Source: Vampirovibrio sp.
GTDB taxonomy: Bacteria > Cyanobacteriota > Vampirovibrionia > Vampirovibrionales > JAJTHC01
Reading direction: 5' to 3'
Assembly (NCBI GenBank): GCA_024998755.1
Contig: JACEUU010000002.1
Span: 76,783 to 140,782, forward strand
DNA length: 64,000 bases
Shown here in pieces: positions 17,218 to 38,454 of the stretch. Every line of letters starts with the position of its first letter. Position 1 is the first letter of the stretch. Under the pieces are notes generated by a model, which was not told the origin of the DNA, did not search any database, and saw nothing but the letters and a program-made list of their open reading frames with translations. The position numbers and the translations under genes were made by a program.

Positions 17218-17314
17218 CTACTTGAATCCGCCTATAAAAATACCGATTAATCGGTTGTTATCTTTGTAATCCTAGTTAAAAGTTCTTGTAATTCTGCTTG
17301 ACGGTTCGACATTA

Positions 17315-18476
17315 TGAAGTTACGGAAAAAGGGCAAGGTAAAATAGAAGGGACATTATTCCACCTCTCATAGGATACCCCACCCCCATGACTACCTTTGC
17401 CGACATCCAAATTCAACAAGCCACCCCCACTCACAAATTCCTAGAGGAAATGAACCAAACCCTACCATGGCAACTATTTGAAACCATCCTCAAAACACAC
17501 ATCCACCACAAACCCAACGGCAGACCACCCTACAAACGCCTACTACTGCTCAAAATGAACCTCCTCAAAATATGGTTCAATCTCTCCTATGAACAAACCG
17601 AATTTCAATGCCACGACAGACTCTCCTTCCGAAAGTTTCTCGGCTTCTCCTTAGAATCCCCCATCCCTGAAGCCACGACACTCGAAAACTTCCAACACGA
17701 ACTGCAAAACACCCCAGCCCAAGAAGCCCTTTTCTTAGCCTTAGACACCTTCTTCCAAGAGAACAACCTCATTCTTAAAGAAGGCAACTTGGTAGATGCC
17801 ACCTTTATTAAAGCCAATAGCAAACAGAGAAAAAAGCCTGAAGACCAGAGCGACCCTGATGCCACTTATGGCTACAAAGGCTTTGGTTACAGTGCCACGG
17901 TTAATGTGGATGCTAAAAGCAAGTTGATTCGCAAGGTGGTTGTTACTGGTGCCAATGTGCATGACAGTCAGAGTTTACTGCCTGTACTGGTGGGCGATGA
18001 GCAGACTGTTGGTGCGGATAGTGGGTATGTGGGTAAGGAGAAGGATTTGAAGGCGTTGGGGATACAGCCGAGGATTATTAAGCGTCGTGTTCGGGGTAAG
18101 CAGCATGAACCAACGCCTGAGTTGACGGCTTCGCAGAAGCGGTTTAATGGGTTGGTTTCTAAGGTTCGGGCAAGAGTGGAGCATGTGTTTGCGGGTTGGA
18201 AGACGGTGTTTAAGAAGGTTCGTGTGTCTTGTCGTGGGTTAGTGCGTGTTTCTGCGGAGATTTTGGGCTTGGCATTTGGGTATAATTGTCGTCGGTATGG
18301 TTTTTTGGTGAGGAGGGGGGTAGGTTTTAGTGGATTCTTGTATGGTTTTTAGGTAATTATGATCCGAAAAGAGTGGAAACAAGGGGTATTGTTCTGTTTT
18401 TTGAGCATTTTTGGTTGAATTTTATTAAAAAACACTCACTACTCCCACCTGCACACCCTTATTCCGTAACTTCATT
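17315..18476 (+). mobile_element. IS5-family insertion sequence, copy 1 (~1.16 kb) with TIR tgaagttacgg...ccgtaacttca.
   Basis: The whole transposase is duplicated at 19961-21122 (inverted) and again at 63446 onward. The flanks tta|IS|tta suggest a 3-bp target-site duplication. Confidence 0.8.
17387..18352 (+). CDS. IS5-family DDE transposase (321 aa).
   Basis: DDE_Tnp_1-like organisation. Identical protein copies are at 20085-21050 (-) and 63518 onward (+). Confidence 0.8.
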   Translation: MTTFADIQIQQATPTHKFLEEMNQTLPWQLFETILKTHIHHKPNGRPPYKRLLLLKMNLLKIWFNLSYEQTEFQCHDRLSFRKFLGFSLESPIPEATTLENFQHELQNTPAQEALFLALDTFFQENNLILKEGNLVDATFIKANSKQRKKPEDQSDPDATYGYKGFGYSATVNVDAKSKLIRKVVVTGANVHDSQSLLPVLVGDEQTVGADSGYVGKEKDLKALGIQPRIIKRRVRGKQHEPTPELTASQKRFNGLVSKVRARVEHVFAGWKTVFKKVRVSCRGLVRVSAEILGLAFGYNCRRYGFLVRRGVGFSGFLYGF

Positions 18477-18499
18477 AATAAAAAGGGCAAGGTTTTTCA

Positions 18500-19270
18500 A
18501 TGGAAAAATATCCAGTAAAAGGCGAAGTGGATAGAATTAGTTTTTTAGATCAATTAACCACTGAAGAACTCAGTCTATTTCATCAAAATGGCACCCTGTT
18601 AACCATGAAAAAAAACGAACCGCTTGATTTGGATGACCCCAGCCACAAAAACAGTGCTTTTTTAGTAACTGAAGGCTTTGTTAAATTAACCACACTAAAC
18701 CTTGAAGGTAAAAAATTTTCGCTCAGCTTATTGCAAACAGGAGATTTGTCTGATTGGTTCTACAACCAAACTGGTGAAGAAAAGCCCTTCTTACAAACTG
18801 GGCATTGTAAGTTTTTAGAATCTATTACTGGCGTTTCGCAAGTCTTACGAATGAATGAAACGGTCTTTCAAGACCTGTTAGATAAAAAGCCCTCCCTCTA
18901 TGTAACCTTATGACGCGTAATGCAATGTAGAGTTTACACCGTGCAACGCCAATTAAGCGATGTTGTTTTTAAAGATGTACACGCCAGAATAGCCCAAACC
19001 TTGTTAGATATGGTGTTCCATTATGCGGAACTTTGCCCTTATGCCTTTGGCGTTGTAAGAGATGTTTGCCTAACCCACCAAGAAATTTCTGAATTGATTG
19101 GGGCTTCAAGACCTGTAACCTCATTAGCGTTGAACGATTTTAGTAGGGCTGATTTAGTTCATAAACACGACCGTTTTTTATGTCTGCAAAATATACCTGG
19201 TTTAGAAATAGTTGCTCAAGAAGGGTATCAAGCCCTTAAAAAAATAAGTAGTGCCTTGGTTGTTAGCTAG
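18500..19270 (+). pseudogene. Crp/Fnr-family transcriptional regulator interrupted by an in-frame TGA at 18914-18916 (cNMP-binding half 18500-18913, HTH half 18920-19270).
   Basis: The two ORFs are in the same frame, 6 nt apart. The first has the beta-roll cNMP-binding fold; the second has the Crp-type HTH (HQEISELIGASRPVTS). TGA is a genuine stop elsewhere in this window (48863-48865). Confidence 0.6.
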
Positions 19271-19388
19271 CTAACAGATATGTGTGAAACAATCTGTTAC
19301 GATAAGTTTAACGAGTTCGGAAAAAAGTATTTTTTCAGTTCGTTTGTTTGTTATCCCTCTTAGTTTCTACTTTTGGAGTATTGAATTC

Positions 19389-19508
19389 ATGAATCTTTCT
19401 ATCGCTAAATTGGCATTAGTTGCCGCTGTTATGTTACAAGGTGCAAGTTTCGCTAACCCTGCTAACACAGATATGTTCCAAATGACCGAAGCCACCAATA
19501 TGTCTTAA
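19389..19508 (+). CDS. Small secreted peptide: a Sec signal peptide plus 18 aa. It continues in frame past a TAA stop into a Cys/Lys-rich segment ending at 19631.
   Basis: GGAG lies 11 nt upstream of the ATG. MNLSIAKLALVAAVMLQGASFA is a classic signal peptide. The in-frame continuation is SNTLIANKKCGSGSCGGKETTKKCAAKKCAAKKCGASEKK*, followed by a terminator hairpin. Confidence 0.45.
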   Translation: MNLSIAKLALVAAVMLQGASFANPANTDMFQMTEATNMS

Positions 19509-19649
19509 TCAAACACACTCATTGCTAACAAAAAATGTGGTTCTGGCTCTTGTGGTGGTAAAGAAACAACCAAGAAATGTGCGGCTAAAAAGTGTGCAGC
19601 TAAAAAATGTGGTGCTTCTGAAAAGAAATAATCGAACCCCTTTCGTTAC

Positions 19650-19690
19650 AGGCGGCTCTGCAAAAGAGCCGTCTGTTTTAAAGATTATTG
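19650..19690 (+). terminator. Rho-independent terminator candidate after the Cys-rich frame.
   Basis: aggcggctct-gcaaa-agagccgtct hairpin followed by gtttta. Confidence 0.45.
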
Positions 19691-19699
19691 CTTCGGACT

Positions 19700-19925
19700 A
19701 TGATGGATGCGTTAGGGGGACTGGCGTCAGCCCCCCCTAACAACCCCCCACCGCTTAAGGGGAAAGGTGGCATTAGCATGCGTCCTCCCCCCTTAAGAAT
19801 CCCCCCTCCCTACCGCTAAGGGCTGACTTGTTTACACGCACGTTGAAAACAGGCTTGACCGGAAGCTAGAAGCTCCCTAATTGGTCTGCTTCACTACGTT
19901 CGCACCAGCCTATTTCCAACTGGGT
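19700..19925. repeat. Family-4 composite repeat; inverted copy of 4495-4690.
   Basis: See the 4495-4690 entry. It is rich in G6-7 and C6-7 tracts. Confidence 0.45.
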
Positions 19926-19960
19926 ATGATTTAAAACTAAAAATCATAAGAAACAGTTCA

Positions 19961-21122
19961 AATGAAGTTACGGAATAAGGGTGTGCAGGTGGGAGTAGTG
20001 AGTGTTTTTTAATAAAATTCAACCAAAAATGCTCAAAAAACAGAACAATACCCCTTGTTTCCACTCTTTTCGGATCATAATTACCTAAAAACCATACAAG
20101 AATCCACTAAAACCTACCCCCCTCCTCACCAAAAAACCATACCGACGACAATTATACCCAAATGCCAAGCCCAAAATCTCCGCAGAAACACGCACTAACC
20201 CACGACAAGACACACGAACCTTCTTAAACACCGTCTTCCAACCCGCAAACACATGCTCCACTCTTGCCCGAACCTTAGAAACCAACCCATTAAACCGCTT
20301 CTGCGAAGCCGTCAACTCAGGCGTTGGTTCATGCTGCTTACCCCGAACACGACGCTTAATAATCCTCGGCTGTATCCCCAACGCCTTCAAATCCTTCTCC
20401 TTACCCACATACCCACTATCCGCACCAACAGTCTGCTCATCGCCCACCAGTACAGGCAGTAAACTCTGACTGTCATGCACATTGGCACCAGTAACAACCA
20501 CCTTGCGAATCAACTTGCTTTTAGCATCCACATTAACCGTGGCACTGTAACCAAAGCCTTTGTAGCCATAAGTGGCATCAGGGTCGCTCTGGTCTTCAGG
20601 CTTTTTTCTCTGTTTGCTATTGGCTTTAATAAAGGTGGCATCTACCAAGTTGCCTTCTTTAAGAATGAGGTTGTTCTCTTGGAAGAAGGTGTCTAAGGCT
20701 AAGAAAAGGGCTTCTTGGGCTGGGGTGTTTTGCAGTTCGTGTTGGAAGTTTTCGAGTGTCGTGGCTTCAGGGATGGGGGATTCTAAGGAGAAGCCGAGAA
20801 ACTTTCGGAAGGAGAGTCTGTCGTGGCATTGAAATTCGGTTTGTTCATAGGAGAGATTGAACCATATTTTGAGGAGGTTCATTTTGAGCAGTAGTAGGCG
20901 TTTGTAGGGTGGTCTGCCGTTGGGTTTGTGGTGGATGTGTGTTTTGAGGATGGTTTCAAATAGTTGCCATGGTAGGGTTTGGTTCATTTCCTCTAGGAAT
21001 TTGTGAGTGGGGGTGGCTTGTTGAATTTGGATGTCGGCAAAGGTAGTCATGGGGGTGGGGTATCCTATGAGAGGTGGAATAATGTCCCTTCTATTTTACC
21101 TTGCCCTTTTTCCGTAACTTCA
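19961..21122 (-). mobile_element. IS5-family insertion sequence, copy 2, inverted relative to copy 1.
   Basis: Reverse complement of copy 1 end to end. Its flanking triplets do not match each other (ata vs ttt). Confidence 0.8.
20085..21050 (-). CDS. IS5-family DDE transposase (copy 2).
   Basis: Identical 321-aa product. Confidence 0.8.
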   Translation of the reverse strand: MTTFADIQIQQATPTHKFLEEMNQTLPWQLFETILKTHIHHKPNGRPPYKRLLLLKMNLLKIWFNLSYEQTEFQCHDRLSFRKFLGFSLESPIPEATTLENFQHELQNTPAQEALFLALDTFFQENNLILKEGNLVDATFIKANSKQRKKPEDQSDPDATYGYKGFGYSATVNVDAKSKLIRKVVVTGANVHDSQSLLPVLVGDEQTVGADSGYVGKEKDLKALGIQPRIIKRRVRGKQHEPTPELTASQKRFNGLVSKVRARVEHVFAGWKTVFKKVRVSCRGLVRVSAEILGLAFGYNCRRYGFLVRRGVGFSGFLYGF

Positions 21123-21138
21123 TATAAGGAACTCAATG

Positions 21139-21524
21139 AGATGCAATCATTATTGCGTGTTACTTTTGCTGGTTTTCAGCCAGCAGTTTTGGGTACCAAG
21201 CATCAGGCTACTGGCGTTCAGCAACCCAGTGCTGTTGGGCAGTTAGCTCAAACACAAACCACAGATGTTTTAGGTGCTATGCCACACTACCGTCCATTAC
21301 CTATAGGGGTACGTTCTGGTAATAATGTAGACAAACTAGTTAGGCAGGAACTAGCTGAACTTGGAAAAGATATTGAAGCTGGTGAACGAAAAATCGCGCA
21401 ACTTGAAGAAGCTGTACAGAAAGATCATCTATCAGAGGAGCTTATTACTCGGGTAGAAGAGGTGATAGCAGACTTACAAGAAGAATTGGGAACAAAGAAG
21501 GTACAAAAGGACAGACTAAGTTAA
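21139..21524 (+). CDS. Hypothetical protein, paralog 1 of a pair that shares a near-identical 60-aa N-terminal module. Its C-terminus is coiled-coil-like.
   Basis: Nt 21139-21320 are ~97% identical to 21858-22040. The track ORF start at 21003 lies inside IS copy 2, so the real start is taken as the ATG at 21139. Confidence 0.5.
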
Positions 21525-21857
21525 CTGGTTCCTAACCAAATTGTGGAACGTTCATTACTGCTAGCTTTTACCGAAAATATTAGCTTTAAATCATATACAG
21601 TTGAAGATAGACTGGTACAAGAGTAGCGAATCAGACCAAAATGAATTCATAGGGGCAGATGCAATCCACCCCCTACAGTTGGTTAAATTTTTAAGCTACT
21701 AGACCTCATGAACACTGCTTACTTGAATTCGCTTTGAGGATTTTTATTTACAAAAAATTATTTTACTGCTAAAATAAATTTTTAATATGACTTTACTTAA
21801 CTAATGATTCGCTTTTAACTTAATCTTTCTATAAAAAATGATGTAAGGGACTAAGTA

Positions 21858-22460
21858 ATGCAATCATTATCGCATGTTACTTTTGCTGGTTTTCAGCCAG
21901 CAGTTTTGGGTACCAAGCATCAGGCTACTGGCGTTCAGCAACCCAGTGCTGTTGGGCAGTTAGCTCAAACACAAACCACAGATGTTTTAGGTGCCATGCC
22001 CCACTACCGTCCATTACCGATAGGGGTACGTTCTGGTACTGGAGACATTGAAAAACTACTGGCACATCTTCATCAAGAAATAAACGAGAAAACTATTGAA
22101 GGCCTGCTGGCAGATCTTGAAAAAGCAGAACGATTAAAAGATGTTACTGCATCAATGAAAAAAATAGACACTGTTGTGGAGAATTTGTTGGATCGTGCAT
22201 TAGCATCTACACCCGATGTTTTTATGCTTAATAGATTAGAGGCAATAGCAAAATTAGTTGATGAACTGAAACAGAACCAAGCAAATCGGGAAGCTACCAC
22301 TGCATCAATCCAAAAGCTCAACACAGTTGTAACCGTTTTTTTAAGCCATATAGAAGCATGTAATGAACGTTACTATGCCAGTTACGATACTTTAACTGTT
22401 AATGCACTAACTATGTTAAAAGAATTAGCAGCAGAATTAGCTGGCATTTTAAAAAAATAA
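21858..22460 (+). CDS. Hypothetical protein, paralog 2: the same N-terminal 60 aa with a different all-helical C-terminal domain.
   Basis: MQSLSHVTFAGFQPAVLGTKHQATGVQQPSAVGQLAQTQTTDVLGAMPHYRPLPIGVRSG is shared with 21139-21524. Confidence 0.5.
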   Translation: MQSLSHVTFAGFQPAVLGTKHQATGVQQPSAVGQLAQTQTTDVLGAMPHYRPLPIGVRSGTGDIEKLLAHLHQEINEKTIEGLLADLEKAERLKDVTASMKKIDTVVENLLDRALASTPDVFMLNRLEAIAKLVDELKQNQANREATTASIQKLNTVVTVFLSHIEACNERYYASYDTLTVNALTMLKELAAELAGILKK

Positions 22461-22502
22461 AAGAAGGTAATTAGGGCCTGTTTTAAAATAAAACCTCTGG
22501 CT

Positions 22503-24278
22503 CTAGACCTCTTCCAAGGTAGAAGTATCGCCTTCAGGCAAGCCCAACGCCCGAGCCTTCAATACCCGACGCATAATTTTCCCAGACCGAGTTTTCGGTA
22601 AACTCTCAATGACCTCAATTTCCCGAGGCATTGCATGAGCCGCTAGCTTAGACCGAACAAACAACGCAATTTCTTTCAGTAATTCAGGGGTTTCCACAAA
22701 ACCCGTTTTCAACGAAATATACGCCTTAATCACTTCCATCCGTTCTGGGCATGGCAAGCCAATCACGCCCGCTTCGGCTACGGCAGGATGATGCACCAAC
22801 GCAGATTCCACTTCAAAAGGCCCTACCAAATGCCCCGCCGTGTTGATAACATCATCTTCACGCCCGACAAACCAAAAATAGCCATCCGTATCCACACTGG
22901 CACGGTCGCCTGTTAAGTACCAGCCGTTTTTAAATCGGCTTTCGTACTTGCTTTGATTATTCCAATAAGTTTTAAACATGGAAGGTGCGGCAGATTTCAA
23001 TGCCAACGCCCCTTCGCTACCCAAAGGTAACGGCGTAAACGTATCATCCAGCACGCAAGCTTCCACCCCAGGGAAAGGCTTACCCATAGAACCCAACCGA
23101 ACAGGCAACCCGATGCGGTTGGTAATGTGAATAGACCCTGTTTCGGTTTGCCACCAAGTATCGTAAATTTCTTGGTCGAATACATCCCGCCCCCAAACAA
23201 TGGCTTCAGGGTTGAGGGGTTCGCCCACACTACAAATATGCCGAAGAGCTTTAAATTGATAACTTTTTGGCAGGTCTGACCCATGCTTCATCAGCATTCT
23301 TAACGCAGTAGGGGCGGTATACCAAACCGAAACATTAAAGCGTTCCAATATGCTATACCATGTTTCAGGCTTAAAAGCCCCTTCAAACACCAATTGCGTA
23401 ACCCCCAACGCCCACGGGCCAAATATCCCGTAGGAAGTACCTGTTACCCAACCGGGGTCTGCAGTGCACCAGTAAACGTCGTTGACAGATAAATCTAACA
23501 CCCATTGGGCGGTAGCTGCTTGAGCGATACACGCCCCATGCTGATGCAATGCTCCTTTGGGTTTACCTGTTGTACCCGAAGTGTAGTGCATAATTGAAGG
23601 CGTTTCCGCAGGGGTATGGGCAACCGTGAATTGACGAGATTGCGGGGCTATCCACTGGTAATAATCCAGTTCTTGAACGCTAGCAGATGGGTTGGGTTGC
23701 CATTGGTGGGCTCTATCCACCACCACGATAGTTTTTAAGCTGGGCACTTGGCTTGCAATCGCATCAATTCTTGGTTTTAGGGCGGGGCTAGTAAATACAA
23801 TGCTAGCTTCAGCGTCTTGCAACCTATCTAAAAGGGCTTCAGGCCCGAATGCGGGGAAGATAGGGCAAAGAATGGCGTGGCATTTTAGCCCGCCAAAAAA
23901 CGACACATACAATTCCGGAATACGTTCTAAAAATAGAAAAATGCGGTCTTGTGGGTTTGTGCCTAAGGCGGTTAGGGCATTGGCAACTTGATTAGAAGCT
24001 AAGCTTAACTCTAAAAACGAATGATGTTCAACTTCGTGCGTAGCGGAAACCCAAAGCAGGGCGGTTTTATTGAGGATAGCATCGGGGTGTCCGTCTAGGC
24101 ATACGGTAGATTGGTTGTAGCCAGTGGCTTTGGGTAAGTTTAGTTGGGTGTGCATGGCATCCCAACTGGGGGGATTTTTTTCGCAATCCCACGGATTCAT
24201 GGGGGACGTGAGGTGAGCGGTTTCAACCACGCCAATAGCAGGAACAACGGATTGTTTTTGGGTGAAATCAATAGACAT
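22503..24278 (-). CDS. AMP-forming acyl-CoA synthetase (acetyl/propionyl-CoA synthetase-like).
   Basis: AMP-binding motif YTSGTTGKPKG, a Gly-rich core and the C-terminal PKTRSGKIMRR motif typical of Acs-family enzymes. Confidence 0.7.
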   Translation of the reverse strand: MSIDFTQKQSVVPAIGVVETAHLTSPMNPWDCEKNPPSWDAMHTQLNLPKATGYNQSTVCLDGHPDAILNKTALLWVSATHEVEHHSFLELSLASNQVANALTALGTNPQDRIFLFLERIPELYVSFFGGLKCHAILCPIFPAFGPEALLDRLQDAEASIVFTSPALKPRIDAIASQVPSLKTIVVVDRAHQWQPNPSASVQELDYYQWIAPQSRQFTVAHTPAETPSIMHYTSGTTGKPKGALHQHGACIAQAATAQWVLDLSVNDVYWCTADPGWVTGTSYGIFGPWALGVTQLVFEGAFKPETWYSILERFNVSVWYTAPTALRMLMKHGSDLPKSYQFKALRHICSVGEPLNPEAIVWGRDVFDQEIYDTWWQTETGSIHITNRIGLPVRLGSMGKPFPGVEACVLDDTFTPLPLGSEGALALKSAAPSMFKTYWNNQSKYESRFKNGWYLTGDRASVDTDGYFWFVGREDDVINTAGHLVGPFEVESALVHHPAVAEAGVIGLPCPERMEVIKAYISLKTGFVETPELLKEIALFVRSKLAAHAMPREIEVIESLPKTRSGKIMRRVLKARALGLPEGDTSTLEEV

Positions 24279-24361
24279 TGGCAGAAAAAGCTTTCAAATT
24301 GAGGATTCGCAATGAGACAAGCTTTTATTCTAGCAATGAACGTTATTTTTTGGCAAGTAGC

Positions 24362-25537
24362 TTATTTGCCAAATAGCGAAATCGAAGTGGCTTCACCGCC
24401 GTTCAGCTTAACAAGAAATTCGTGAAGTTCATTCATTAATTGAGCCGTTTCTGGCTCAATTGAAAAATGATTGTCTCTACAATCTACAAAACTTTCAATT
24501 CGCCCTTCTATTGACGGGTTTTTTTTAATGAACTGCTTTTCTTCCTCTGTGAATAATGAGGTTCGAGTTTCATATTGATGAATGGCTTCCTTGTATATTT
24601 TTAGTTCACGCACAGCAAAAGTTATTTGATTTGGTTCTACCGATTTGAGGTTAGGTAAGTTGCTTACTTCTTCTAAAACTTCACAAGTTTCTCTTAACAA
24701 CACTTGCAAAATAAGTGGATTTACTTTTTCCTTTTCTGATAAGGATTGAATCAACAACAACAGGGGTTCGCAAGGCTTGGTAGGTGCGTCTGGATAGAGA
24801 TTTCTTGTTAGGGTTTCTCTCTGTTCATGTTTTGCTTTGATTTCAGCTAAAGTTTTTTCAATTTTAGGTACTATTTCTTTATTTTTAGACATATAAGCTT
24901 CAATAAAACCTTCTTTTCCTCCTCGTATAAAGTTAATGCTAATTTGGTGTTCTGCTTCTTTTCTAGCATTAAATTGAATACGATTCATAGCATTACCAAT
25001 ATAATTTGCAAACACCATGAGTTTATCCATTTTTTCATCTAACTGATTTATTTGATGGGACTGTAAACTAGATTGCTTATATAAAAAAAAGAGATCGCTT
25101 TTCGCCTCCAGTAACAATCGTCGCATCTCGGAAAGTCCAGACTCCAAATCTTCGCCATTCGTTCTGTTTTTGAGTTGCTTTTCTAATCTATCCAACTTTT
25201 TTTCCATCTGGGCTAGTGCCGTCTGCACTTCGTGCAACGCTCCCTTGTTTGCATGGTTCATTTTTGAATAAAGTAAACCCACCCCAAAAACAGCACACAA
25301 ACTAGCAATAAAGCCCATGGTAGCCAAAACAACAGACGTTTTATCTGCTACCGGCACTTCCCTAATAACAACCTTCGGTGGCACGGATGGCTTTTCAGAA
25401 GATTTTTTCTCAAAGCTATCGACTACTTCAATCGGGTTGTCTTTTCCCGCATCTCGTGGGCTTGCCAGTTTCTTCCCCTGCCCAAGCGGAGGATAAGAAT
25501 TGCTGAAGGTTAAAGCGGTAGGCACTATTGTCATCAT
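24362..25537 (-). CDS. Hypothetical membrane-anchored coiled-coil protein.
   Basis: One transmembrane helix (VVLATMGFIASLCAVFGVGLLY) followed by long heptad-rich helical sequence. Confidence 0.4.
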   Translation of the reverse strand: MMTIVPTALTFSNSYPPLGQGKKLASPRDAGKDNPIEVVDSFEKKSSEKPSVPPKVVIREVPVADKTSVVLATMGFIASLCAVFGVGLLYSKMNHANKGALHEVQTALAQMEKKLDRLEKQLKNRTNGEDLESGLSEMRRLLLEAKSDLFFLYKQSSLQSHQINQLDEKMDKLMVFANYIGNAMNRIQFNARKEAEHQISINFIRGGKEGFIEAYMSKNKEIVPKIEKTLAEIKAKHEQRETLTRNLYPDAPTKPCEPLLLLIQSLSEKEKVNPLILQVLLRETCEVLEEVSNLPNLKSVEPNQITFAVRELKIYKEAIHQYETRTSLFTEEEKQFIKKNPSIEGRIESFVDCRDNHFSIEPETAQLMNELHEFLVKLNGGEATSISLFGK

Positions 25538-25692
25538 TTTTCAGGATCGTTCCATTCACTTTCAGAAGCAAGCCAAAGCCTCTAAGATCATTATCTAACA
25601 AACACATTAACGTGCGAACAACCGCTTTTGTGCTAAAATAGCACCAACGAATTTAACCGCTACTGGATTTTAGAAAAGACACCGAATTTGCG

Positions 25693-27537
25693 ATGATGAT
25701 GAAAATTTCCACCCTGTTTGCCTCTACCTTACGAGACGTTCCTGCTGACGCCGAAGTGGTCAGCCACCAACTGCTATTGCGGGCGGGCTACATTCGCCGT
25801 ATTACCAGTGGCGTCTACAGTTACCTACCCCTCATGTGGCGAACCCTACAAAAAATTAGCACCATCGTACGGGAAGAAATGAATCGTGCCAATGCTCAAG
25901 AATTGCTGATGCCCATTCTACAACCTCGGGAATTATGGGAATCTTCAGGACGGTGGAGCGTTTATGGCGACGAACTAATGCGGCTAAAAGACCGCCACCA
26001 AAGAGATTTCTGTCTTGCCCCAACAGGTGAAGAGGTCATCACCCAACTAGCTCAAATTGAAGTAAAATCTTACCGGCAATTGCCACTCAACCTCTATCAA
26101 GTTTCTAATAAATATCGCGATGAGCGTCGCCCTCGGTTTGGGCTATTGCGTGGGCGTGAATTTATTATGAAGGATGCTTATAGCTTTCACGCCAACCAAG
26201 CCTGCTTAGACCGTGAATACGAAGTAATGGCAGAAGCCTACACCGCTATTTTTAACCGATGCGGTGTAAAAACCAAGATGGTTGCCAGTGATTCTGGGGC
26301 AATTGGCGGAGCAGTAAGCCACGAATTTATGATGTTGACAGGCTATCAAGCCGAAGCCCAACAATCAGGCGAAAACGATGTGGTTCATTGTGAAACTTCG
26401 GGGTATGCGGCTAATAGCGAAAAAGCGGTGTCCATTCCGCAACCGCAAGCCGTAGATGGTGCTGATACATTCAGCCAATATAACGCCACAACCAACGTAG
26501 AAACCCCTTACACTGATACGATTGAAAAATTGTGTAAAAAGCTAAAATGTTCTGCAGAAGTGATTTGCAAAACACTGTTATATGTAAAAGATGAAACGGA
26601 TTTTATCGCCGTGTTGATGCGGGGCGATTATGATGTGGAAGAAACCAAGCTGAAGAACGCCTTGGGTGCATTAACCCTTCGTATGGCGACAGAAGAAGAA
26701 TTGACAAGGCTTTACGAAACCAAAAAAGGCTTCGTTGGTTATTATGAGGCTTTATGTTCAGGTGAAACTGTTGATTTAACTAGCGTTAAAGGCAAAGATG
26801 GCACACCCGTTAGCCTGTTGGTGGATAAAACGGTAGTATCAATGAAAAACTTTGTCATAGCCAATATGGAAGCCCACGTTCATTGGGTTAACGCCAATTG
26901 GGCAGGCAATTGTTGCCAAGCTGAAGGCATCACTGTGGCGGATGTTCGCACCGTGAAAGCAGGCGATCTATGCGTTGAAAGCAATCAACCGTTGAGTATT
27001 ACTCGAGGGATTGAAGTCGGCAATATTTTCCAATTGGGCACGAAGTATTCCGAAAGTATGCAAGCCACTTACACCGCTGAAGATGGCACAGAACAACCGT
27101 TTGTGATGGGTTGCTACGGTATTGGCGTTAGCCGTGTAGCTGCTTCCGCCGTGGAACGCTACCACGATGCGAACGGTATTATCTGGCCTACAGCGATTGC
27201 CCCGTATCAAGTGATTATTGTACCTGCCAACGTAAAAGATGAAACCCAGTGGGCATTGGCAAATCAGCTTTACGCCGAACTTAAAACCGTTTTGGGCGAT
27301 GAGGTGTTGCTAGATGACCGTGATGAGCGGGCAGGCGTGAAGTTTAAAGATGCGGATTTAATGGGCTTCCCGTTAAGAATTACGGTTGGTAAATTAGCGG
27401 GTGAAGGCAAGGTAGAAGCCAAACTTCGGGCATCAAAAGACCTCATTATTTTAGATGCCAGTGATGTTGCCACCCAAGCAAAAACCCTATTAGCCCAGTG
27501 GGACGCCCTTTCGTGGGAACCGCCTGTAACCCCATAA
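25693..27537 (+). CDS. proS: Prolyl-tRNA synthetase, bacterial type with an INS editing domain.
   Basis: Class II aaRS motifs plus the inserted editing domain, ~600 aa. It starts ATGATGATG. Confidence 0.8.
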   Translation: MMMKISTLFASTLRDVPADAEVVSHQLLLRAGYIRRITSGVYSYLPLMWRTLQKISTIVREEMNRANAQELLMPILQPRELWESSGRWSVYGDELMRLKDRHQRDFCLAPTGEEVITQLAQIEVKSYRQLPLNLYQVSNKYRDERRPRFGLLRGREFIMKDAYSFHANQACLDREYEVMAEAYTAIFNRCGVKTKMVASDSGAIGGAVSHEFMMLTGYQAEAQQSGENDVVHCETSGYAANSEKAVSIPQPQAVDGADTFSQYNATTNVETPYTDTIEKLCKKLKCSAEVICKTLLYVKDETDFIAVLMRGDYDVEETKLKNALGALTLRMATEEELTRLYETKKGFVGYYEALCSGETVDLTSVKGKDGTPVSLLVDKTVVSMKNFVIANMEAHVHWVNANWAGNCCQAEGITVADVRTVKAGDLCVESNQPLSITRGIEVGNIFQLGTKYSESMQATYTAEDGTEQPFVMGCYGIGVSRVAASAVERYHDANGIIWPTAIAPYQVIIVPANVKDETQWALANQLYAELKTVLGDEVLLDDRDERAGVKFKDADLMGFPLRITVGKLAGEGKVEAKLRASKDLIILDASDVATQAKTLLAQWDALSWEPPVTP

Positions 27538-27624
27538 AGACCTAGGACGTGATGCAACGCATAGACCGCTAGGGCTAATAAATCACGCCCCTACAAATAC
27601 CCCTATATAGAAAAGGATTTTTTC

Positions 27625-28689
27625 ATGATGATGAGTATTTCCCTATTTGAAACCATTGCCCAACACGGGCACGAAAGCGTCCTAACTTGCTACGATTTTA
27701 AATCTGGCTTAAAAGGCTTTATTGGGTTGCACAATACCACATTAGGTCCTGGTTTGGGCGGGTGTCGTGTGATGCGATACCCTTCCGAAGCGGCTGCCTT
27801 CCAAGATATGCTTGCTCTTTCCGAAGCAATGACTTATAAAAACAGCTTGGCTGGCTTACCTTATGGTGGCGGTAAAGCCGTTATTTGGTTGCAAGAAGGG
27901 CAAGAAAAAACACCGGAACTGATTGACGCCATGGGGCGGTGCATTAAATCGCTCAACGGTAGTTATTTCACCGCAACAGATATTGGTTCTACCAGTGCAG
28001 ATATGAAACGCATGAGAGCTATTTCCCCTTACGTTTCAGCTCTTTCGCCTGAAGACGGAGGACTGGGCGATTCTGCTATTTTAACAGGCTTGGGCGTTTA
28101 CCAAGGCATTCGGGCAGCGGTGAAACATCGGTTAGGTAAAACCTCATTAGATGGCGTAAAAATTGCCATTCAAGGAGCTGGAAAAGTAGCCTACCATATG
28201 TTAAGCCACCTAACCCAAGAAGATGTAACCGTTTACCTAACAGATACGAATGAAGAAGCCATTGCAAAATGCCAAGCAGCTTATCCAACCATCAAGGTTG
28301 TTGCCCCTTCGGAAATTTGGCATCAGCCCGTAGATATTCTTTCCCCTAACGCCATTGGCGGAACAATTACTGATGAAGTCATTGCCAATTCAACGGCAAC
28401 CATTATTGCTGGCGGTGCTAATAACCCCTTGCGTGATAGAGGCGTTGCCACAACCGCAGCAACAGCAGAAGTTTTGTTCGCTCCGGATTTTGCGATTAAT
28501 TCAGGGGGCGTCATTGTGCTAAGCACGGAACTAGCCAAAGGCACAATTGAAGAAGCAAAAACTAAAACATTGGGTATTTATGATACGGCGTTGCGGGTGT
28601 TTGAAGTAGCTAAAGCTAGAAAAATCAACACATTAGAAGCAGCTATTGCCCTAGCCAAAGAAAATATCACTAATAACGCTAAAGGCTAA
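27625..28689 (+). CDS. Glu/Leu/Phe/Val dehydrogenase-family amino-acid dehydrogenase (Leu/Phe-DH-like).
   Basis: GLPYGGGKAV catalytic-lysine motif and an NAD Rossmann GxGxVA. Size is ~354 aa. Confidence 0.65.
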   Translation: MMMSISLFETIAQHGHESVLTCYDFKSGLKGFIGLHNTTLGPGLGGCRVMRYPSEAAAFQDMLALSEAMTYKNSLAGLPYGGGKAVIWLQEGQEKTPELIDAMGRCIKSLNGSYFTATDIGSTSADMKRMRAISPYVSALSPEDGGLGDSAILTGLGVYQGIRAAVKHRLGKTSLDGVKIAIQGAGKVAYHMLSHLTQEDVTVYLTDTNEEAIAKCQAAYPTIKVVAPSEIWHQPVDILSPNAIGGTITDEVIANSTATIIAGGANNPLRDRGVATTAATAEVLFAPDFAINSGGVIVLSTELAKGTIEEAKTKTLGIYDTALRVFEVAKARKINTLEAAIALAKENITNNAKG

Positions 28690-28696
28690 AACTAAT

Positions 28697-28773
28697 CACG
28701 TCATGTTGAGCGTAGTCGAAACATCCCCTTAGACAGCTCGGGAGATTCCTCGAATTCGCTCAACATGACATGA
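28697..28773. repeat. Family-2 palindromic element (gtcatgttgagcg ... cgctcaacatgac).
   Basis: A 13-bp perfect terminal inverted repeat. Relatives are at 17133-17217 and 54476-54567. Confidence 0.5.
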
Positions 28774-28780
28774 ATTAGTA

Positions 28781-29761
28781 TTAAATCGAAAAATTTTCGT
28801 CTGCTTGATTTAAATGCGTTAGCGTTACAAACACATCTTCTAACGAAGGTTCTATTTCACGAACCCCTCTCGCATCAATTTCCGCTTGGCGTAAATCCAA
28901 CAATAATTGTTCCTTTGGTATCGTATCTGGCATGGTAACGTGCAAAGCCTGCCCAAAAATCGTTACATCCTGCACATACGGGAACGCCTTCACCTTATTA
29001 AATGAAGCAACCAAGGGTCTGCAGACCAATTCATACCGAGAAACGCCTTCGCCAACCACGGCTCTTAAATGTTTTAATTCATCTGGCCCGCCGGAAACAA
29101 TGAGTTTAGAATTATAAATATAGCCTACGCTACTGCAGCGTTCCGCTTCATCCATGTAATGAGTGGTTACAAACAACGTAACGCCACTGCTGGCAAGGGT
29201 AAACAACAAATCCCACAAATGCCGACGGGCAACTGGGTCCATTGCAGCAGTGGGCTCATCTAAAAAAATGATATCGGGGGAATGCACCAAAGCACAACAC
29301 AACGCCAACCGTTGCTTCCAGCCACCAGAAAGTTGCTTGGCCAAATAATTAGCGTAAGGTTCAATACCGACCAATTCCTTTACTGCCCGCTTACTGGCTT
29401 CACCTGTTTTACCCGTAACGCCATAAAGCCCTGCATAGAAATCTAAATTTTCAGAAACCGTTAAATCTTCATACAAGCTGAATTTCTGAGGCATATAGCC
29501 TATATAACGTCGAATTAATTCTGGTTCTTGCTCAACATCAATACCACAAACTAACGCTTTACCTGAGGTTGGTGGCATTAATCCACAAAGCATCTTAATG
29601 GTGGTAGATTTCCCTGAACCATTGGGGCCTAGAAAGCCATAAATTTCGCCCTTACCCACCCGTAAATCCAATGAATCAACCGCAATTCGGTCGCCAAATT
29701 TACGCACTAATTTTTCGGTTACAATCACATTGTCATTGGGTGCTGAAGCGTCAAAAATCAT
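28781..29761 (-). CDS. ABC transporter ATP-binding protein (ABC-2 / DrrA-like).
   Basis: Walker A GPNGSGKST, the LSGG signature and Walker B DEPT. It is translationally coupled to the upstream HlyD gene. Confidence 0.75.
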   Translation of the reverse strand: MIFDASAPNDNVIVTEKLVRKFGDRIAVDSLDLRVGKGEIYGFLGPNGSGKSTTIKMLCGLMPPTSGKALVCGIDVEQEPELIRRYIGYMPQKFSLYEDLTVSENLDFYAGLYGVTGKTGEASKRAVKELVGIEPYANYLAKQLSGGWKQRLALCCALVHSPDIIFLDEPTAAMDPVARRHLWDLLFTLASSGVTLFVTTHYMDEAERCSSVGYIYNSKLIVSGGPDELKHLRAVVGEGVSRYELVCRPLVASFNKVKAFPYVQDVTIFGQALHVTMPDTIPKEQLLLDLRQAEIDARGVREIEPSLEDVFVTLTHLNQADENFSI

Positions 29762-29763
29762 TG

Positions 29764-30957
29764 CTAAGTAGCGTCCTGATTCACAACTATTTGTACAGAC
29801 ATTCCTGGAAACAACCGAATTACATTGATATCCGCTGCTGGGGAAACTTCAATTCTGATTCTAAAAGTAGCTTCTGTACCAGTGGAAGCATCTGCTGTAG
29901 CACCAGAACCAGAAGGAACAAACTCACTTTTAGGACTAATAAACGCTACTTCTCCGGAAAATTTAGCATTAGGATAAGCCTTACTTTTAATGTTTACTTT
30001 TTGCAGACGATGTAGAAATTGGAGCTTGGATTCTGGCACGAATAAATCCACCCATAAATGGTTACTATCTAAAATATTGACGGCTGGCACATCTGGTGGC
30101 ACAACCTGCCCTAACGAAACAGTCAACAAATTAACCGTACCTTTAATGGGGGAAAGTACAGTAGACTCTTCCATTTTAACTTTTAACCCTTGCACAATAC
30201 TGGCAGCACGTTGGATTTCAGCATCGGCAATTTTTAATTCAGCAGGATTAACTTTTTCCTTCAGCTTGCTTAGCTGGGCTGTTGCCCCTGACCGTTCCGC
30301 CTTGGCGATACCAATTTCTTCCATTCTAGCCCCTTTTCGCACGAGTGAAACTCTCGCTTTGGCTGCTAATAACGCACTTTGGGCCGATTCTAAATTGTTT
30401 TGAATTTCGTCTACTTTTTGTTGGGAAATAATACCACTAGCCAGTACTTGTTTCGCTTGTTCTAATTGATTTTTACAGACCCTTACTTTGGCTTCTACTT
30501 CACGCACCTTGGCTTGAGCTTCCGCTAATTCTTCAGGGCGTCCGCCATTGACTAACAAGGCAATACGTTCGTTCGATTGCTGTACTTTGGCTTGTGCCTG
30601 TTGAATGTCATTGGGGGAAATGGCGGTCAGCAACAATTCTTTTTTAGCTTTTACTTGGGCTAAACTCGCTTCGGCTTCCATCAGCTTAGCTAAAATTTCC
30701 TTATTTTCAAACCGAAGTAATGGTGTACCGGCCTGCACTTCCATGCCCTCTTTTACAAGAACGGCGGAAACACGCCCCCCTAATCGAGAACCATTTTTAA
30801 CTTCTTCCGCTTGTAAAACACCATTAAATAATAGTGGGCTATTAAACCACCCAGACCACCATGGTTTCGCCAATAAAACAGCCCCTAATAATAAGGCTAA
30901 TAACAATAATAGCTTTAACTGGTTGGTTGTAACCCATTTAATGAATTTAATCGTCAT
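29764..30957 (-). CDS. HlyD-family membrane-fusion (secretion/efflux) protein.
   Basis: N-terminal transmembrane anchor, a long coiled-coil and a beta-barrel C-terminus typical of HlyD/EmrA. Confidence 0.7.
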   Translation of the reverse strand: MTIKFIKWVTTNQLKLLLLLALLLGAVLLAKPWWSGWFNSPLLFNGVLQAEEVKNGSRLGGRVSAVLVKEGMEVQAGTPLLRFENKEILAKLMEAEASLAQVKAKKELLLTAISPNDIQQAQAKVQQSNERIALLVNGGRPEELAEAQAKVREVEAKVRVCKNQLEQAKQVLASGIISQQKVDEIQNNLESAQSALLAAKARVSLVRKGARMEEIGIAKAERSGATAQLSKLKEKVNPAELKIADAEIQRAASIVQGLKVKMEESTVLSPIKGTVNLLTVSLGQVVPPDVPAVNILDSNHLWVDLFVPESKLQFLHRLQKVNIKSKAYPNAKFSGEVAFISPKSEFVPSGSGATADASTGTEATFRIRIEVSPAADINVIRLFPGMSVQIVVNQDAT

Positions 30958-30991
30958 AAAATAACAGTGTTTCTAGCAAAAGTAGCAATGG

Positions 30992-33355
30992 TTAAGAACC
31001 TTGATATAACTTAGAATAAACCCAAATGCCTTCAAAAACGTGTTCAACATAATGGCGTGTTTGGTCATAAGGAATGGTTTCAACAAACAAATCCGGTGAT
31101 TGTGCGAACACTTCCTGCCGAACATTAACCCATTCCGCAACGGCACCTGGGCCAGCATTATACGCCGCCACAACCAATAACGGATGCTGTTGAAGCTGAT
31201 TATTTAAATACTGCAAATAAGCCGAACCCAAGGTAATATTCGTCTTCGGATCCATTAATTGAAGCGATGAAACGGGTGGTTGCTTTAAACTTCTAGCCAT
31301 ATCATTAGCAGTAGAGGGCAATAACTGCATCAAACCAACCGCCTTGGCAGGGCTCACTACCATGGGGTTAAAGGAACTTTCCTGACGCATAAGTGCCATG
31401 GTCAAATAGGGGCTAATTTTTTCACGTTCAGCTTGGACTTGAACAATCGCAGGGTAATGTAGCGGAAATAACAATTGATACAACGTTTTAGGGGCATGAT
31501 ACCGAGATTCAACCGTATGCGGTACATCTAAGCTCGACAAATAATCCCGAATAACCCGTAAGCTGGCATCATACTGGTCTTGTTCCACCTTAGACCAAGC
31601 GGAAAGCACCACTTGTTCCACCGAATTTTCAGGGAGGGTTTGGCTAATTAACAAATCTACATCATCAAAGGCTTGTATCTCATTCAGCTCGCGAACTTGA
31701 GAAGATAACTGCTTGGGTACTCGGGAAGATTTCGCTAAATAATCTTCCAGCCAAGCATCTGGATTCGACGGATTTTTTTCCAGTAGTGGTAATCCTCCCG
31801 CCATGTTGCCTAAACCAAAGCCACTGGCTTCTTTAATGTTATTAAGGTAGGCATTTGCCCTAAACGCATAATAGGTGTAAGGGTATTTTGATTGAATGAC
31901 TTCAAACGCATCAGTAGCATCTAGGTTTTGCCCCATTAATTGATGAGAAACGGCCTTCCAAAACAGCACGGCAGGGGCTTCAATACTAGCGGGATACTGT
32001 GCCAAAAACGCATCTGCTTGGCTAATAACTTTACCAAACGATTTGGTAATAAATTGGTGGCGAATGACTTCAGAACTAGCAAACGGTGCAACTCTATCTT
32101 TAGGAAACTGGGTGGCAATTTTTTCATAAGCAGGAAGAGCCAATTTGTCATCTGCTTGGCTTATAAACCATGCCAAACCCAATTTGTTTTGTTGACTGGT
32201 ATTGCCTAATGCCACTAATTGAGGAATTGCTTTTGCTTTCCCTATTTTGGCTACATATTGTTCTAGTACGGGTTGTAAAGCTTTCACAGGAAAGTCTACC
32301 GTATTCAACCAACTGGTTAAATTCACCTTAAACGAATCCATTTTACCTTGATGTAGCAACAATTCCAAGTAAACTAGCCCTGCAGAATTAGCACGGAAGC
32401 CTTTTTTCAAAATAGTATCAACCATTGCCCAATCATTAGCTTTAGCAAAAACATTGGCAACTAAAGCCCGTTGCTCAAAATTCAGGATATCATTTACTTT
32501 AGCTAATTGCTTGGCAATTTCTAAGCTGTAAGTACCGTCAGGCGATTGCTTTAAGTAAGTAATCCAAGCTTGTTGGGTTTCTTTTCCCAAACTATTGCCT
32601 TGCGAAGAAAGCGACAGTTGCTGATAAATTTGACCTAAAAAGTAGTTCGCCCCAATAGCGTAATTAGATTGTGGGAACGTTTTCTGCAATTGCAATAGCG
32701 TTTCTAACGATTTTTCCCACTGTTTTGCCCGTACTTGGGATAATCCTAATTCATACATGGCAACAGCAGCCAACGCATTACCTTCAGTGCCTCTATCAAT
32801 GACTTTTTTTAGGCGGATTTGCGTTAAATCTTCCCGAGGCACTTGGCTATAAAGATCTGCTAAATGAAGTGAAATGCTAGATTCTAAACCAGGGTAATAA
32901 GGCTCTACTTTTAAAAACAAGTCAATAGCCCGTTTGGTTTGCCCCGCTTTTTTGGCAACTAAGGCTTGTTTAAACAAGCTTTGCACTTGCGAACGAGAAT
33001 ACCCATCTGCCCCAGCATTAGGCTGAAAAATAGTAACCGCTCCTCTACCAAACAGCCCAGCCAAAGGTCCATTACCGGAAACACCCACATTCCAAAGCCA
33101 ATAAACACCCGCTAAAATAATAGCTCCAGCTACAACAAATGGGAATAATGAAAAACTAGGTGGACGCTGACCACCTCTTCTTCCCATGTGCTGACGATTT
33201 GAATTCACAAATGGAGATTTAGGGGATTGCTTAAAAGGGTTTGACATAAATAAGCCTTGTAAAAAACCAAAAGTAGAAGCGGTTCTAGCTGATGTAACCA
33301 ATGAGCGACGCCCTGTATTATGGGGTGGTGATTGCAATCTGGTCATCATCATCAT
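30992..33355 (-). CDS. slt: Soluble lytic murein transglycosylase (Slt-like).
   Basis: C-terminal SLT domain (LMRQESSFNPMVVSPAKAVGLMQLLPSTA) preceded by a long superhelical region. It starts ATGATGATGATG. Confidence 0.7.
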   Translation of the reverse strand: MMMMTRLQSPPHNTGRRSLVTSARTASTFGFLQGLFMSNPFKQSPKSPFVNSNRQHMGRRGGQRPPSFSLFPFVVAGAIILAGVYWLWNVGVSGNGPLAGLFGRGAVTIFQPNAGADGYSRSQVQSLFKQALVAKKAGQTKRAIDLFLKVEPYYPGLESSISLHLADLYSQVPREDLTQIRLKKVIDRGTEGNALAAVAMYELGLSQVRAKQWEKSLETLLQLQKTFPQSNYAIGANYFLGQIYQQLSLSSQGNSLGKETQQAWITYLKQSPDGTYSLEIAKQLAKVNDILNFEQRALVANVFAKANDWAMVDTILKKGFRANSAGLVYLELLLHQGKMDSFKVNLTSWLNTVDFPVKALQPVLEQYVAKIGKAKAIPQLVALGNTSQQNKLGLAWFISQADDKLALPAYEKIATQFPKDRVAPFASSEVIRHQFITKSFGKVISQADAFLAQYPASIEAPAVLFWKAVSHQLMGQNLDATDAFEVIQSKYPYTYYAFRANAYLNNIKEASGFGLGNMAGGLPLLEKNPSNPDAWLEDYLAKSSRVPKQLSSQVRELNEIQAFDDVDLLISQTLPENSVEQVVLSAWSKVEQDQYDASLRVIRDYLSSLDVPHTVESRYHAPKTLYQLLFPLHYPAIVQVQAEREKISPYLTMALMRQESSFNPMVVSPAKAVGLMQLLPSTANDMARSLKQPPVSSLQLMDPKTNITLGSAYLQYLNNQLQQHPLLVVAAYNAGPGAVAEWVNVRQEVFAQSPDLFVETIPYDQTRHYVEHVFEGIWVYSKLYQGS

Positions 33356-33445
33356 CTAGATAAATCCTTCTGGGTAACGGTAATAAATGGGTACAAGCTA
33401 ATAAACTAAATTATCACGAACAAGGTAAAACCACAGTCAGTATAA

Positions 33446-34651
33446 TTAATGCCCTAGCAACGATTCTTTTAATTTAGCGAAAAAACCACTTGGGTGCGGT
33501 GCTTCTTCGCCCGCTTTGGTAGGTTCAGCCTTTGGTTTTTTTGCCATACGTTCTTGTTCTAATTGACGTAATTGTTGCAACAAGTCTCGTTCAGCAGAAG
33601 ATAATTTTTGAGGAATTTGAACTTCCAACTGTAAGCGAAATTCACCCCGACGTTGGGGCTGATTAATTTGGGGAATACCTTCGCCTTTCAGCGTAATAAC
33701 TGTGCCATTAGCTGAACCTGCTGGAATTTTAACGGATTGCACGCCTTTCAGTAAGGGAATTTCAACCGTATCACCCAACGCTAACTGGCTAAAGCTAACC
33801 GGAATTTTCGATAATACATCGTACCCATCTCTCACAAAATGAGCATCTGCGGCAACATTAAGCACCACATACAAATCGCCATTAGGGCCGCTCTTCCAGC
33901 CCGCATCGCCTTCATTTGAAACGCGCAACCGTGTGCCAGAATCTACTCCAGCAGGAATGGTTAATTCCAATGGTTTGGTTTGTTCTTTGCGTCCTTCGCC
34001 TTGGCAATCAGGGCAAGGGTGGGGCATTACCTGCCCAGACCCATTACAATGAGGGCAAGTAACTACTTGGGTAAATTGCCCAAACATGGTTTGTGCCGTT
34101 TGTCGAATTTGTCCGTGCCCGTTACAGTGGGTACAGGTTTCAGGACTCGTGCCTGGGGCTGCACCGCTACCATGGCAAGTGGTACAGGTATCTAACCGAC
34201 GCACTTCAATCGTTTTTTCACACCCAAAGGCAGCTTCCATAAAGGTTAGCTTCAAGGAAACACGCAAATCGCTACCACGGGCAGGGCTATTAGCAGACCC
34301 CCGACCACCACCGCCGGAAAACCCGCCATTGAAGAAGGCTGAAAAAATATCTGACAAATCAGTAAAATCATCCATAAAGCCCCATGAAGATGCCCCACCA
34401 CCCATACCAGATGAGCCTTTTAAACCTTCATGCCCGTAGGCATCGTAAGTACGGCGTTTTGTCTCATCGCTTAAAACGGCGTAAGCTTCGCCTAATTCTT
34501 TAAATTGAGATTCCGCTGTGGGGCTTTTATTGGTATCTGGGTGCAATTCTTTCGCCTTTTGACGAAAAGCTTTTTTAATAGCAGCAGCGTCGGCGGATTT
34601 TGCCACGCCTAATACGTCATAATAATCTCTTTGTTGTTGTTGCTGGCTCAT
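33446..34651 (-). CDS. dnaJ: Chaperone DnaJ.
   Basis: J-domain with HPD, a G/F region and four CxxCxGxG zinc-finger repeats. Confidence 0.85.
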   Translation of the reverse strand: MSQQQQQRDYYDVLGVAKSADAAAIKKAFRQKAKELHPDTNKSPTAESQFKELGEAYAVLSDETKRRTYDAYGHEGLKGSSGMGGGASSWGFMDDFTDLSDIFSAFFNGGFSGGGGRGSANSPARGSDLRVSLKLTFMEAAFGCEKTIEVRRLDTCTTCHGSGAAPGTSPETCTHCNGHGQIRQTAQTMFGQFTQVVTCPHCNGSGQVMPHPCPDCQGEGRKEQTKPLELTIPAGVDSGTRLRVSNEGDAGWKSGPNGDLYVVLNVAADAHFVRDGYDVLSKIPVSFSQLALGDTVEIPLLKGVQSVKIPAGSANGTVITLKGEGIPQINQPQRRGEFRLQLEVQIPQKLSSAERDLLQQLRQLEQERMAKKPKAEPTKAGEEAPHPSGFFAKLKESLLGH

Positions 34652-34713
34652 AATCTAAAAAAAAGTTCCCTAATGCTTAAAAAATAAAGAATTTAAATGA
34701 ATTGAAATAGCGA

Positions 34714-35989: not shown

Positions 35990-36073
35990 GGCTTAGGCTC
36001 CATTCTCAAAGTAAATAGCTTTTTCAATGATAATAACAAAGAAACAACGATTATGGCGAAAAACTTCCATACG

Positions 36074-38441: not shown

Positions 38442-38454
38442 AAGCGACGACCTT

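Follow-up and report, generated by a model that had tools for sequence, protein, structure and literature searches.

Separate insertion events and a 42-kb inversion probably account for an apparent composite transposon in a Vampirovibrio chromosome

The stretch of DNA analyzed here (64,000 nucleotides from Vampirovibrio sp., assembly GCA_024998755.1, contig JACEUU010000002.1; hereafter the window) contains three copies of one insertion sequence (IS) of the IS5 family. Copies 1 and 2 are complete and stand in inverted orientation around 1488 bp of DNA (18475-19962 between the IS termini), and copy 3 lies at the far end of the window. The original prediction interpreted the pair as a composite transposon and the enclosed DNA as its cargo. 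We find that the structure is very probably a by-product of three IS events in the resident chromosome, one of which is an inversion of 42 kb. A single insertion site is split between copies 2 and 3, and the two parts of a gene cluster that are contiguous in relatives without the IS now lie beside different copies.

The inversion was recognized by comparison with L007 and L008, two metagenome contigs among those carrying the closest homologues of the MNIO gene that adjoins copy 3. L007 (~90% identical) is collinear with the window across the breakpoint: its positions 97-849 correspond to window positions 19267-19961 on the plus strand, and its positions 845-2328 to window positions 63449-61965 on the minus strand, with an IS-free junction between them. 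Because this collinearity runs through the breakpoint, the flanks at the right end of copy 2 and at the left end of copy 3 are the two sides of one insertion site, and the segment between the two copies is therefore inverted with respect to the ancestral gene order. The original prediction had ascribed the unmatched flanks of copy 2 (ATA/TTT) to a later recombination or inversion and had proposed that long reads be examined for other orientations of the region at 21-63 kb; its suspicion of an inversion is borne out by the comparison. When the two flanks are joined, the window is exactly 3 nt longer than L007 (…GTTCAAA/IS/AATATAAAA… versus …GTTCAATAAAA…, that is, AAA/IS/AAT versus AAT).

The genes on either side of the split site belong together in relatives. 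In HvfA- and bufferin-type clusters, the precursor gene is, as a rule, directly followed by those of an MNIO (DUF692) maturase and a DUF2063 partner, with or without DoxX (PMC12452194). In L007, L008 and L009, the MNIO gene is directly preceded by that of an orthologous precursor (86-100 aa). L008, which comes from the GROS21 sample series and shares ~78% nucleotide identity with the window, carries without interruption by an IS a DoxX gene (minus strand), an intact crp-like gene of 254 aa, a precursor gene of 86 aa, the MNIO gene and a 262-aa gene, the DNA of which is ~78% identical to the DUF2063 gene of the window. The MNIO and DUF2063 genes of the window are located 43 kb from the precursor gene, on the opposite strand and against copy 3, with the MNIO start codon 40 nt from the left end of that copy. 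The coordinates of these and the other features are collected in Table 1.

Table 1. Features of the IS copies, the inverted segment and the divided gene cluster (window coordinates unless a contig is named).
Feature	Position	Strand	Details
IS copy 1 (IS5 family)	17315..18474	+	1160 bp; left end 17315, right end 18474
IS copy 2	19963..21122	-	Same as copy 1; right inverted repeat faces the precursor gene, left inverted repeat at 21122
IS copy 3	63446..64000	+	Element cut by the window end; same as copy 1 over 555 nt
Transposase open reading frame, copy 1	17387..18352	+	321 aa; D137, D211 and E265 in LVDATF, GADSGY and RARVEHVFAGWK
Left TTA of the copy 1 target-site duplication	17312..17314		Right TTA at 18475-18477
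AAA, precursor-side half of the split target duplication	19960..19962		Partner AAT is the reverse complement of 63443-63445
Segment inverted relative to the ancestral gene order	21123..63445		42,323 bp; from L007 collinearity and strand skew
Crp/Fnr-like regulator pseudogene	18500..19270	+	HTH_Crp_2; weak CRP, PtrA and NtcA matches
Precursor pseudogene (HvfA/bufferin-like)	19389..19632	+	Putative Sec-type signal peptide; Cys-rich core with KKC repeats
Terminator-like hairpin after the precursor gene	19648..19676	+	12 bp, then UUUU; -23.8 kcal/mol, z = -5.0
Small dispersed repeat	19838..19944		Preceded by G/C tracts (~19700-19830); also at 4456-4562 and 21580-21639
MNIO (MbnB/HvfB/BufB) maturase	62518..63405	-	Intact, 295 aa
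DUF2063/HvfC-type partner of MNIO	61652..62521	-	Intact, 289 aa; orthologue also 289 aa
11-nt insertion ATTTTGGGTTA in other IS copies	L001 ~603-613; L002 ~120-130; L003 ~2445-2455; L004 ~93-103		

The strand composition of the window provides a second line of evidence. The GC skew of the top strand is +0.052 to the left of copy 1 (1-17314) versus -0.027 within the segment, and the cumulative G-C curve reaches its maximum at 19724. At third codon positions, the top-strand skew left of the IS amounts to +0.21 for plus-strand and +0.19 for minus-strand genes, and inside the segment to -0.02 and -0.14, respectively; the per-gene medians are +0.18 (n = 12, left) versus -0.12 (n = 35, segment; Mann-Whitney p = 1.9e-4). 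Because the third-position skew agrees in sign on both strands on each side, the change is not an effect of gene orientation. The pattern is consistent with a segment that acquired its composition in the opposite orientation and was flipped recently.

The flanks of the individual copies were compared in IS orientation. Copy 1 is bordered by TTA on both sides, as the original prediction had it, a match estimated from base composition to arise by chance in ~2% of cases. An apparent target-site duplication of 3 bp, clean and spanning a single IS, is what a solitary insertion at this place leaves behind; copy 1, having a duplication of its own, therefore inserted alone. The left flank of copy 3 is ATT, its right side lying beyond the window. 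The site reconstituted from the left flank of copy 3 and the right flank of copy 2 thus reads ATT/TTT, a 3-bp duplication with one mismatch; when the T and A at the termini are assigned to the target and not to the IS, the two flanks are ATTT each and form a perfect repeat of 4 bp. Such a count is not far-fetched, because L001 and L004, two metagenome contigs with other copies of the IS, carry A instead of T at the terminal position. The evidence within the window favours a target-site duplication of 3-4 bp for this IS. A 12-nt stretch beside the left ends of copies 2 and 3 (to 21134 and 63434) was considered as a shared flank and dismissed as a chance extension, with 8 of 12 positions matching.

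A survey of flanks at other copies and at related elements (L001-L004 and L010-L016) relied mostly on short-read contigs that exceed the IS only slightly in length and may be chimeric. In the four contigs with copies 94-99% identical to that of the window (L001-L004), the flanks are unpaired, and these short contigs are possibly chimeric across the repeat. Among more distant relatives, also mostly on short-read contigs, TAAA was found in L015 and TAT in L014, with no pairing in L010 and L011. Taken literally, the few copies retrieved in L001-L004 present the case in which the original prediction would have called the TTA match of copy 1 coincidental; with contigs of this kind, we do not regard that as decisive.

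These observations can be arranged into a probable history. The ancestral order was the crp/fnr-like regulator, the Cys-rich precursor with its signal peptide, the hairpin, the small repeat, the MNIO gene and its DUF2063 partner. An IS would first have entered a spacer rich in A and T, 40 nt before the MNIO start, producing a duplication of 3-4 bp (ATT or ATTT). That copy and an oppositely oriented one ~42 kb away would then have exchanged halves, most likely by RecA-type homologous recombination, inverting positions 21123-63445. The precursor gene now stands against copy 2, at its right end; the MNIO gene stands against copy 3, at its left end, on the other strand and at a distance of 43 kb. 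In an independent event, copy 1 would have inserted into a TTA located 25 nt before the crp start codon. One nonsense mutation is present in the regulator gene and one in the precursor gene, and they may precede or follow the IS events. The order of the events, as well as homologous recombination as the mechanism of the inversion, is what we infer from the present arrangement.

A different route to the same arrangement is a one-step inversion, in which a single IS undergoes intramolecular replicative transposition in inversion mode, is duplicated in inverted orientation, flips the 42 kb and splits a new 3-4 bp duplication. This route predicts the junctions observed, with half of the duplication at the right end of copy 2 and half at the left end of copy 3, accounts for the 100% identity of the copies as that of a replication product, and calls for one event instead of three. 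Recombination between pre-existing copies leaves the same junctions, however, and the many near-identical IS copies of the genome offer ample substrate for it. Moreover, cut-and-paste is regarded as the main mode of movement in the IS5 family. We consider the one-step route unlikely.

The arrangement could also be an assembly artefact, in which the wrong flanks were joined across identical repeats of 1.16 kb while the precursor gene, one IS and the MNIO gene are contiguous in reality. The source is a metagenome-assembled genome (MAG), mis-joins are easily made among three identical repeats, contigs from short reads end at the IS, and a wrong join would give a skew discontinuity as well. Against this, the length of the source contig, 1.49 Mb, suggests that it was built from long reads that easily span 1.2 kb. 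We regard a mis-join as very unlikely. Four contigs of the GROS21 metagenome, two of which were read (L005 and L006), are 100% identical to the succession of right end, 1488 bp and right end; both inner junctions of the enclosed segment are, therefore, real in a natural population.

The composite transposon of the original prediction would mobilize the 1.5-kb unit of crp-like and precursor genes by means of the outward-facing left ends of copies 1 and 2. Two intact and identical inverted copies do surround a short segment with their ends facing outward, the transposase looks functional from its sequence, and such a pair is mobilizable in principle. The outer flanks of the two copies differ, however (TTA at 17312-17314 versus TAT at 21123-21125; TTAT versus ATAT when four bases are compared), and the duplication of copy 1 spans copy 1 alone. 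The enclosed genes keep the order and context that they have in the IS-free L007 and L008, and the rest of the operon is found at copy 3. Furthermore, both enclosed genes are dead, and the only context recovered for the unit, in a limited search that did not include the source genome, is that of L005, L006 and two similar contigs, with no second location. A true composite transposon is extremely unlikely on this evidence.

Several points weigh against the history of separate insertions and inversion that we prefer. The change in skew could mark a replication terminus instead, and skew is noisy for single genes (-0.23 for crp and +0.31 for MNIO). L007 is ~10% diverged and its junction lies in an A-rich run, so that an indel of other origin could explain the 3-nt difference. 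At 3 bp, the split duplication has a mismatch (ATT versus TTT), and it becomes perfect only with termini placed one base inward; with such termini, the flanks of copy 1 no longer match (TTAT versus ATTA), and we found no placement of the boundaries that suits the two sites alike. The right flank of copy 3 is beyond the window, where its pairing with the left flank of copy 2 (ATA) is out of reach, and the upstream region of L008 is too diverged for the empty site of copy 1 to be aligned.

The DNA between copies 1 and 2 holds what the original prediction had listed, namely a Crp/Fnr gene with an in-frame TGA, a Cys-rich peptide gene, a terminator and a G/C-tract repeat; its span, given there as 18477-19960, required correction to the termini stated above. 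The TGA interrupts the regulator gene at 18911-18913, where L008 has a Leu codon (CTA). A second in-frame stop, which had escaped the original prediction, is the TAA at 19506-19508 in the precursor gene; L007 and L008 both encode Ser (TCA) there, a difference of a single C-to-A change. Recoding or readthrough of the two stops was considered and rejected, given that the orthologues have sense codons and that long open reading frames extend across most of the window under translation table 11. Copy 1, inserted upstream of the crp-like gene, probably cuts it off from its promoter, and a scan for consensus promoters revealed none that leads out of the IS in the direction of the MNIO gene. Positions 1-96 of L007 are unrelated to the window, and homology begins exactly at the crp stop codon (window position 19268); the L007 lineage lacks the crp-like gene at the position of the cluster, and L008 has one there.

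The 3' part of the hairpin that follows the precursor gene, TCTGTTTTAAAG, is also present in L007, being the portion inside the alignment. The hairpin, with only four T's, was missed by the scanner that had been applied to promoters. The small repeat downstream is found at the orthologous place in L007 and, therefore, predates the IS insertion. It belongs to one of several families of small intergenic repeats dispersed in the window (50-150 nt, 80-94% identical). The members of this family are at 4456-4562, 19838-19944 and 21580-21639; those of the other families are at 47494-47672 and 61166-61323, at 17129-17186 and 28694-28752, and at 7235-7380 and 37586-37731. The repeat at 61166-61323 is also seen beside the orthologous cluster in L008 (347-546). 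These repeats are possibly related in kind to miniature inverted-repeat transposable elements or to repetitive extragenic palindromes.

The proteins of the divided cluster were compared with family models. The MNIO protein is 93% identical to its homologue P0001 over 100% of the length and scores 302 bits with PF05114 (3e-90), 288 bits with BufB (cutoff 310) and 257 bits with HvfB (cutoff 360). The DUF2063 protein matches PF09836 (47 bits, cutoff 27.2) and PF22106, and reaches 74 bits with the HvfC model NF050145, below its cutoff of 142. The precursor gene encodes MNLSIAKLALVAAVMLQGASFA…KKCGSGSCGGKETTKKCAAKKCAAKKCGASEKK, of which the N-terminus MNLSIAKLALVAAVMLQGASFA resembles a signal peptide by eye; its only family match is to the HvfA model of oxazolone/thioamide metallophores, which are ribosomally synthesized and post-translationally modified peptides (RiPPs), at 29.5 bits and below the cutoff of 95. 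With a putative signal peptide, Cys repeats and this weak HvfA match, the precursor appears to be of the type expected as a substrate for MNIO and DUF2063. The locus of crp, precursor, MNIO and DUF2063 can thus be classed, from its gene content, as a putative copper-peptide cluster of the bufferin/oxazolin type, the precursor match to HvfA being weak.

The IS itself was delimited from the inverted repeat that it forms in the window, with arms at 17313-18476 and 19961-21124 that measure 1164 nt, are 100% complementary and are spaced by 1484 nt. Subtraction of two flanking bases per side that match by chance leaves 1160 bp for the IS proper, over which copies 1 and 2 are the same base for base; copy 3 has the orientation of copy 1. 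The terminal inverted repeat is TGAAGTTACGG, 11 bp and perfect; each of the five IS ends inside the window carries it, against ~1 chance match expected. With a mismatch, the repeat can be extended to 19 nt, of which 18 match, and related IS with transposases of 48-56% identity retain GAAnnTACGGAAAAAGG in their terminal repeats. Both full copies encode one intact transposase open reading frame of 321 aa, in which the motifs containing D, D and E occupy residues 135-140, 209-214 and 261-272.

The transposase contains the domains PF05598 (DUF772, 64 bits) and PF01609 (DDE_Tnp_1, 76 bits), and it matches NF033581 (IS5_4) of NCBIfam with 233.6 bits, above the cutoff of 140, over model positions 1-284 of 285. 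Together with the terminal repeats and the size of ~1.2 kb, these domains identify the element, as judged from sequence features, as a member of the IS5 family; the description of copies 1 and 2 in the original prediction as identical, inverted and IS5-like is thereby upheld. The identity to the annotated transposases of IS5 and ISKpn26 is ~33% over 96-97% of the length, and the element is apparently active and undescribed.

At least about a dozen full-length, near-identical transposase proteins are annotated on three contigs of the Vampirovibrio sp. MAG, and two of these proteins (MCS6266254.1 and MCS6266256.1) are the same as the transposase of the window. A scan for the transposase in collections of genome and metagenome contigs, neither of which includes the source genome, yielded one locus each (L003 and L004). 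Look-ups by exact protein gave no record for the MNIO, DUF2063 and PurC proteins or for the transposase variants P0121 and P0242. L003 (JAPLIO010000102.1), a contig of a 'Candidatus Melainabacteria' MAG from Lac Pavin, carries a copy of the IS that is 97-98% identical; the element is, therefore, common to freshwater Melainabacteria of different lakes. The copies in L001-L004 have, in all four cases, an 11-nt insertion after GGCAAGGTA in the left untranslated part, which is found in none of the three copies of the window. Two sublineages of this IS thus exist.

In L002, the left end of a second copy follows within 417 nt after the IS (1263-1712), in direct orientation and with the variant end TGAAGTTAGGG, and an open reading frame of 167 aa (1148-1651) begins inside the right end of the first copy and lies between the two IS ends.

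The 14-nt sequence AAAAAGGGCAAGGT occurs four times in the window, versus 0.18 expected. Three occurrences lie just inside the left end of the IS (17326-17339, 21098-21111 and 63457-63470), and the fourth (18480-18493) is chromosomal, located 5 nt to the right of copy 1 and directly upstream of the crp start. Related IS retain ACGGAAAAAGG in their ends. As L008, without an IS, carries GAAAAAGGGTTGG upstream of its crp-like gene, the chromosomal occurrence is native sequence. Its vicinity to copy 1 could be due to a target preference for sequence resembling the end of the IS, or to chance.

On the other side of copy 2, 24 nt from its left end, begins the first of two adjacent paralogous genes (21147-21524 and 21858-22460). 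Their 5' parts share 181 nt at 97% identity (21141-21321 and 21858-22038), after which they diverge, and neither gene has a Pfam or NCBIfam match. A tRNA-Ser(GCT) called by ARAGORN at 17019-17119 was considered as an insertion target and discarded as probably spurious; it is 101 nt long, is without Rfam support and falls in the G/C-tract repeats upstream of copy 1. Rfam confirms a tRNA-His at 51085-51157.

Taken as an outcome, the insertion and the 42-kb inversion split the cluster and probably helped to inactivate it, and the cluster has presumably lost its function in this lineage. This is a known kind of event, ordinary scrambling driven by an IS, and the current understanding of IS biology is unchanged by it. 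One may also ask whether copies 2 and 3 act as a reversible 42-kb switch in the population, or whether the IS burst, together with the two nonsense mutations, records a loss of a copper-binding peptide system that was selected for in a predatory Vampirovibrio lineage, and not neutral decay. Even without the inversion, however, an IS would stand between the precursor gene and that of the enzyme, and the precursor gene has already become a pseudogene; we consider either proposal highly improbable.

The element resembles the IS5 group, represented by IS5 and ISKpn26 of enterobacteria, in its single 321-aa reading frame with DUF772 and DDE_Tnp_1, the IS5_4 match, the short terminal repeats, the size of ~1.2 kb and the apparent short A/T-rich duplication. 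The target duplication of IS5 is the 4-bp YTAR. The IS of the window differs from both named elements in its ~33% identity, an apparent duplication of 3 or 3-4 bp, the termini TGAAGTTACGG and its host, a Vampirovibrio of the Melainabacteria. With Tn10 and Tn5, the pair of copies 1 and 2 has in common that two inverted copies of one IS stand around a short unique segment. Unlike these transposons, it lacks a duplication that encloses the entire unit, one IS has a duplication of its own, the enclosed DNA is native and non-functional, and no second location was recovered. The appearance of a composite transposon very probably reflects two independent IS insertions and an inversion, which came to light from sequence alone when the rest of the broken operon was located at a third IS.

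As in other inversions mediated by IS, identical inverted copies bound the segment, the duplications are exchanged and an operon is split at the breakpoint; unlike in the usual case, the direction of the inversion is read here from IS-free relatives and strand skew and not from a sister strain. The divided cluster shares with the BufABC and HvfABC clusters a precursor with a putative Sec-type signal and repeated Cys residues, the MNIO and the DUF2063 protein, and, in L008, an adjoining DoxX gene. It departs from them in the KKC(A/G)A repeats of its precursor, which take the place of EGKCG, and in its scores with the HvfA (29.5 versus 95) and BufB (288 versus 310) models, as well as in being split and in having a precursor and a regulator that are pseudogenes. 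The window thus records a bufferin/oxazolin-like MNIO cluster in Melainabacteria, with a Lys/Cys-repeat variant of the precursor, that appears to be inactivated in this lineage.

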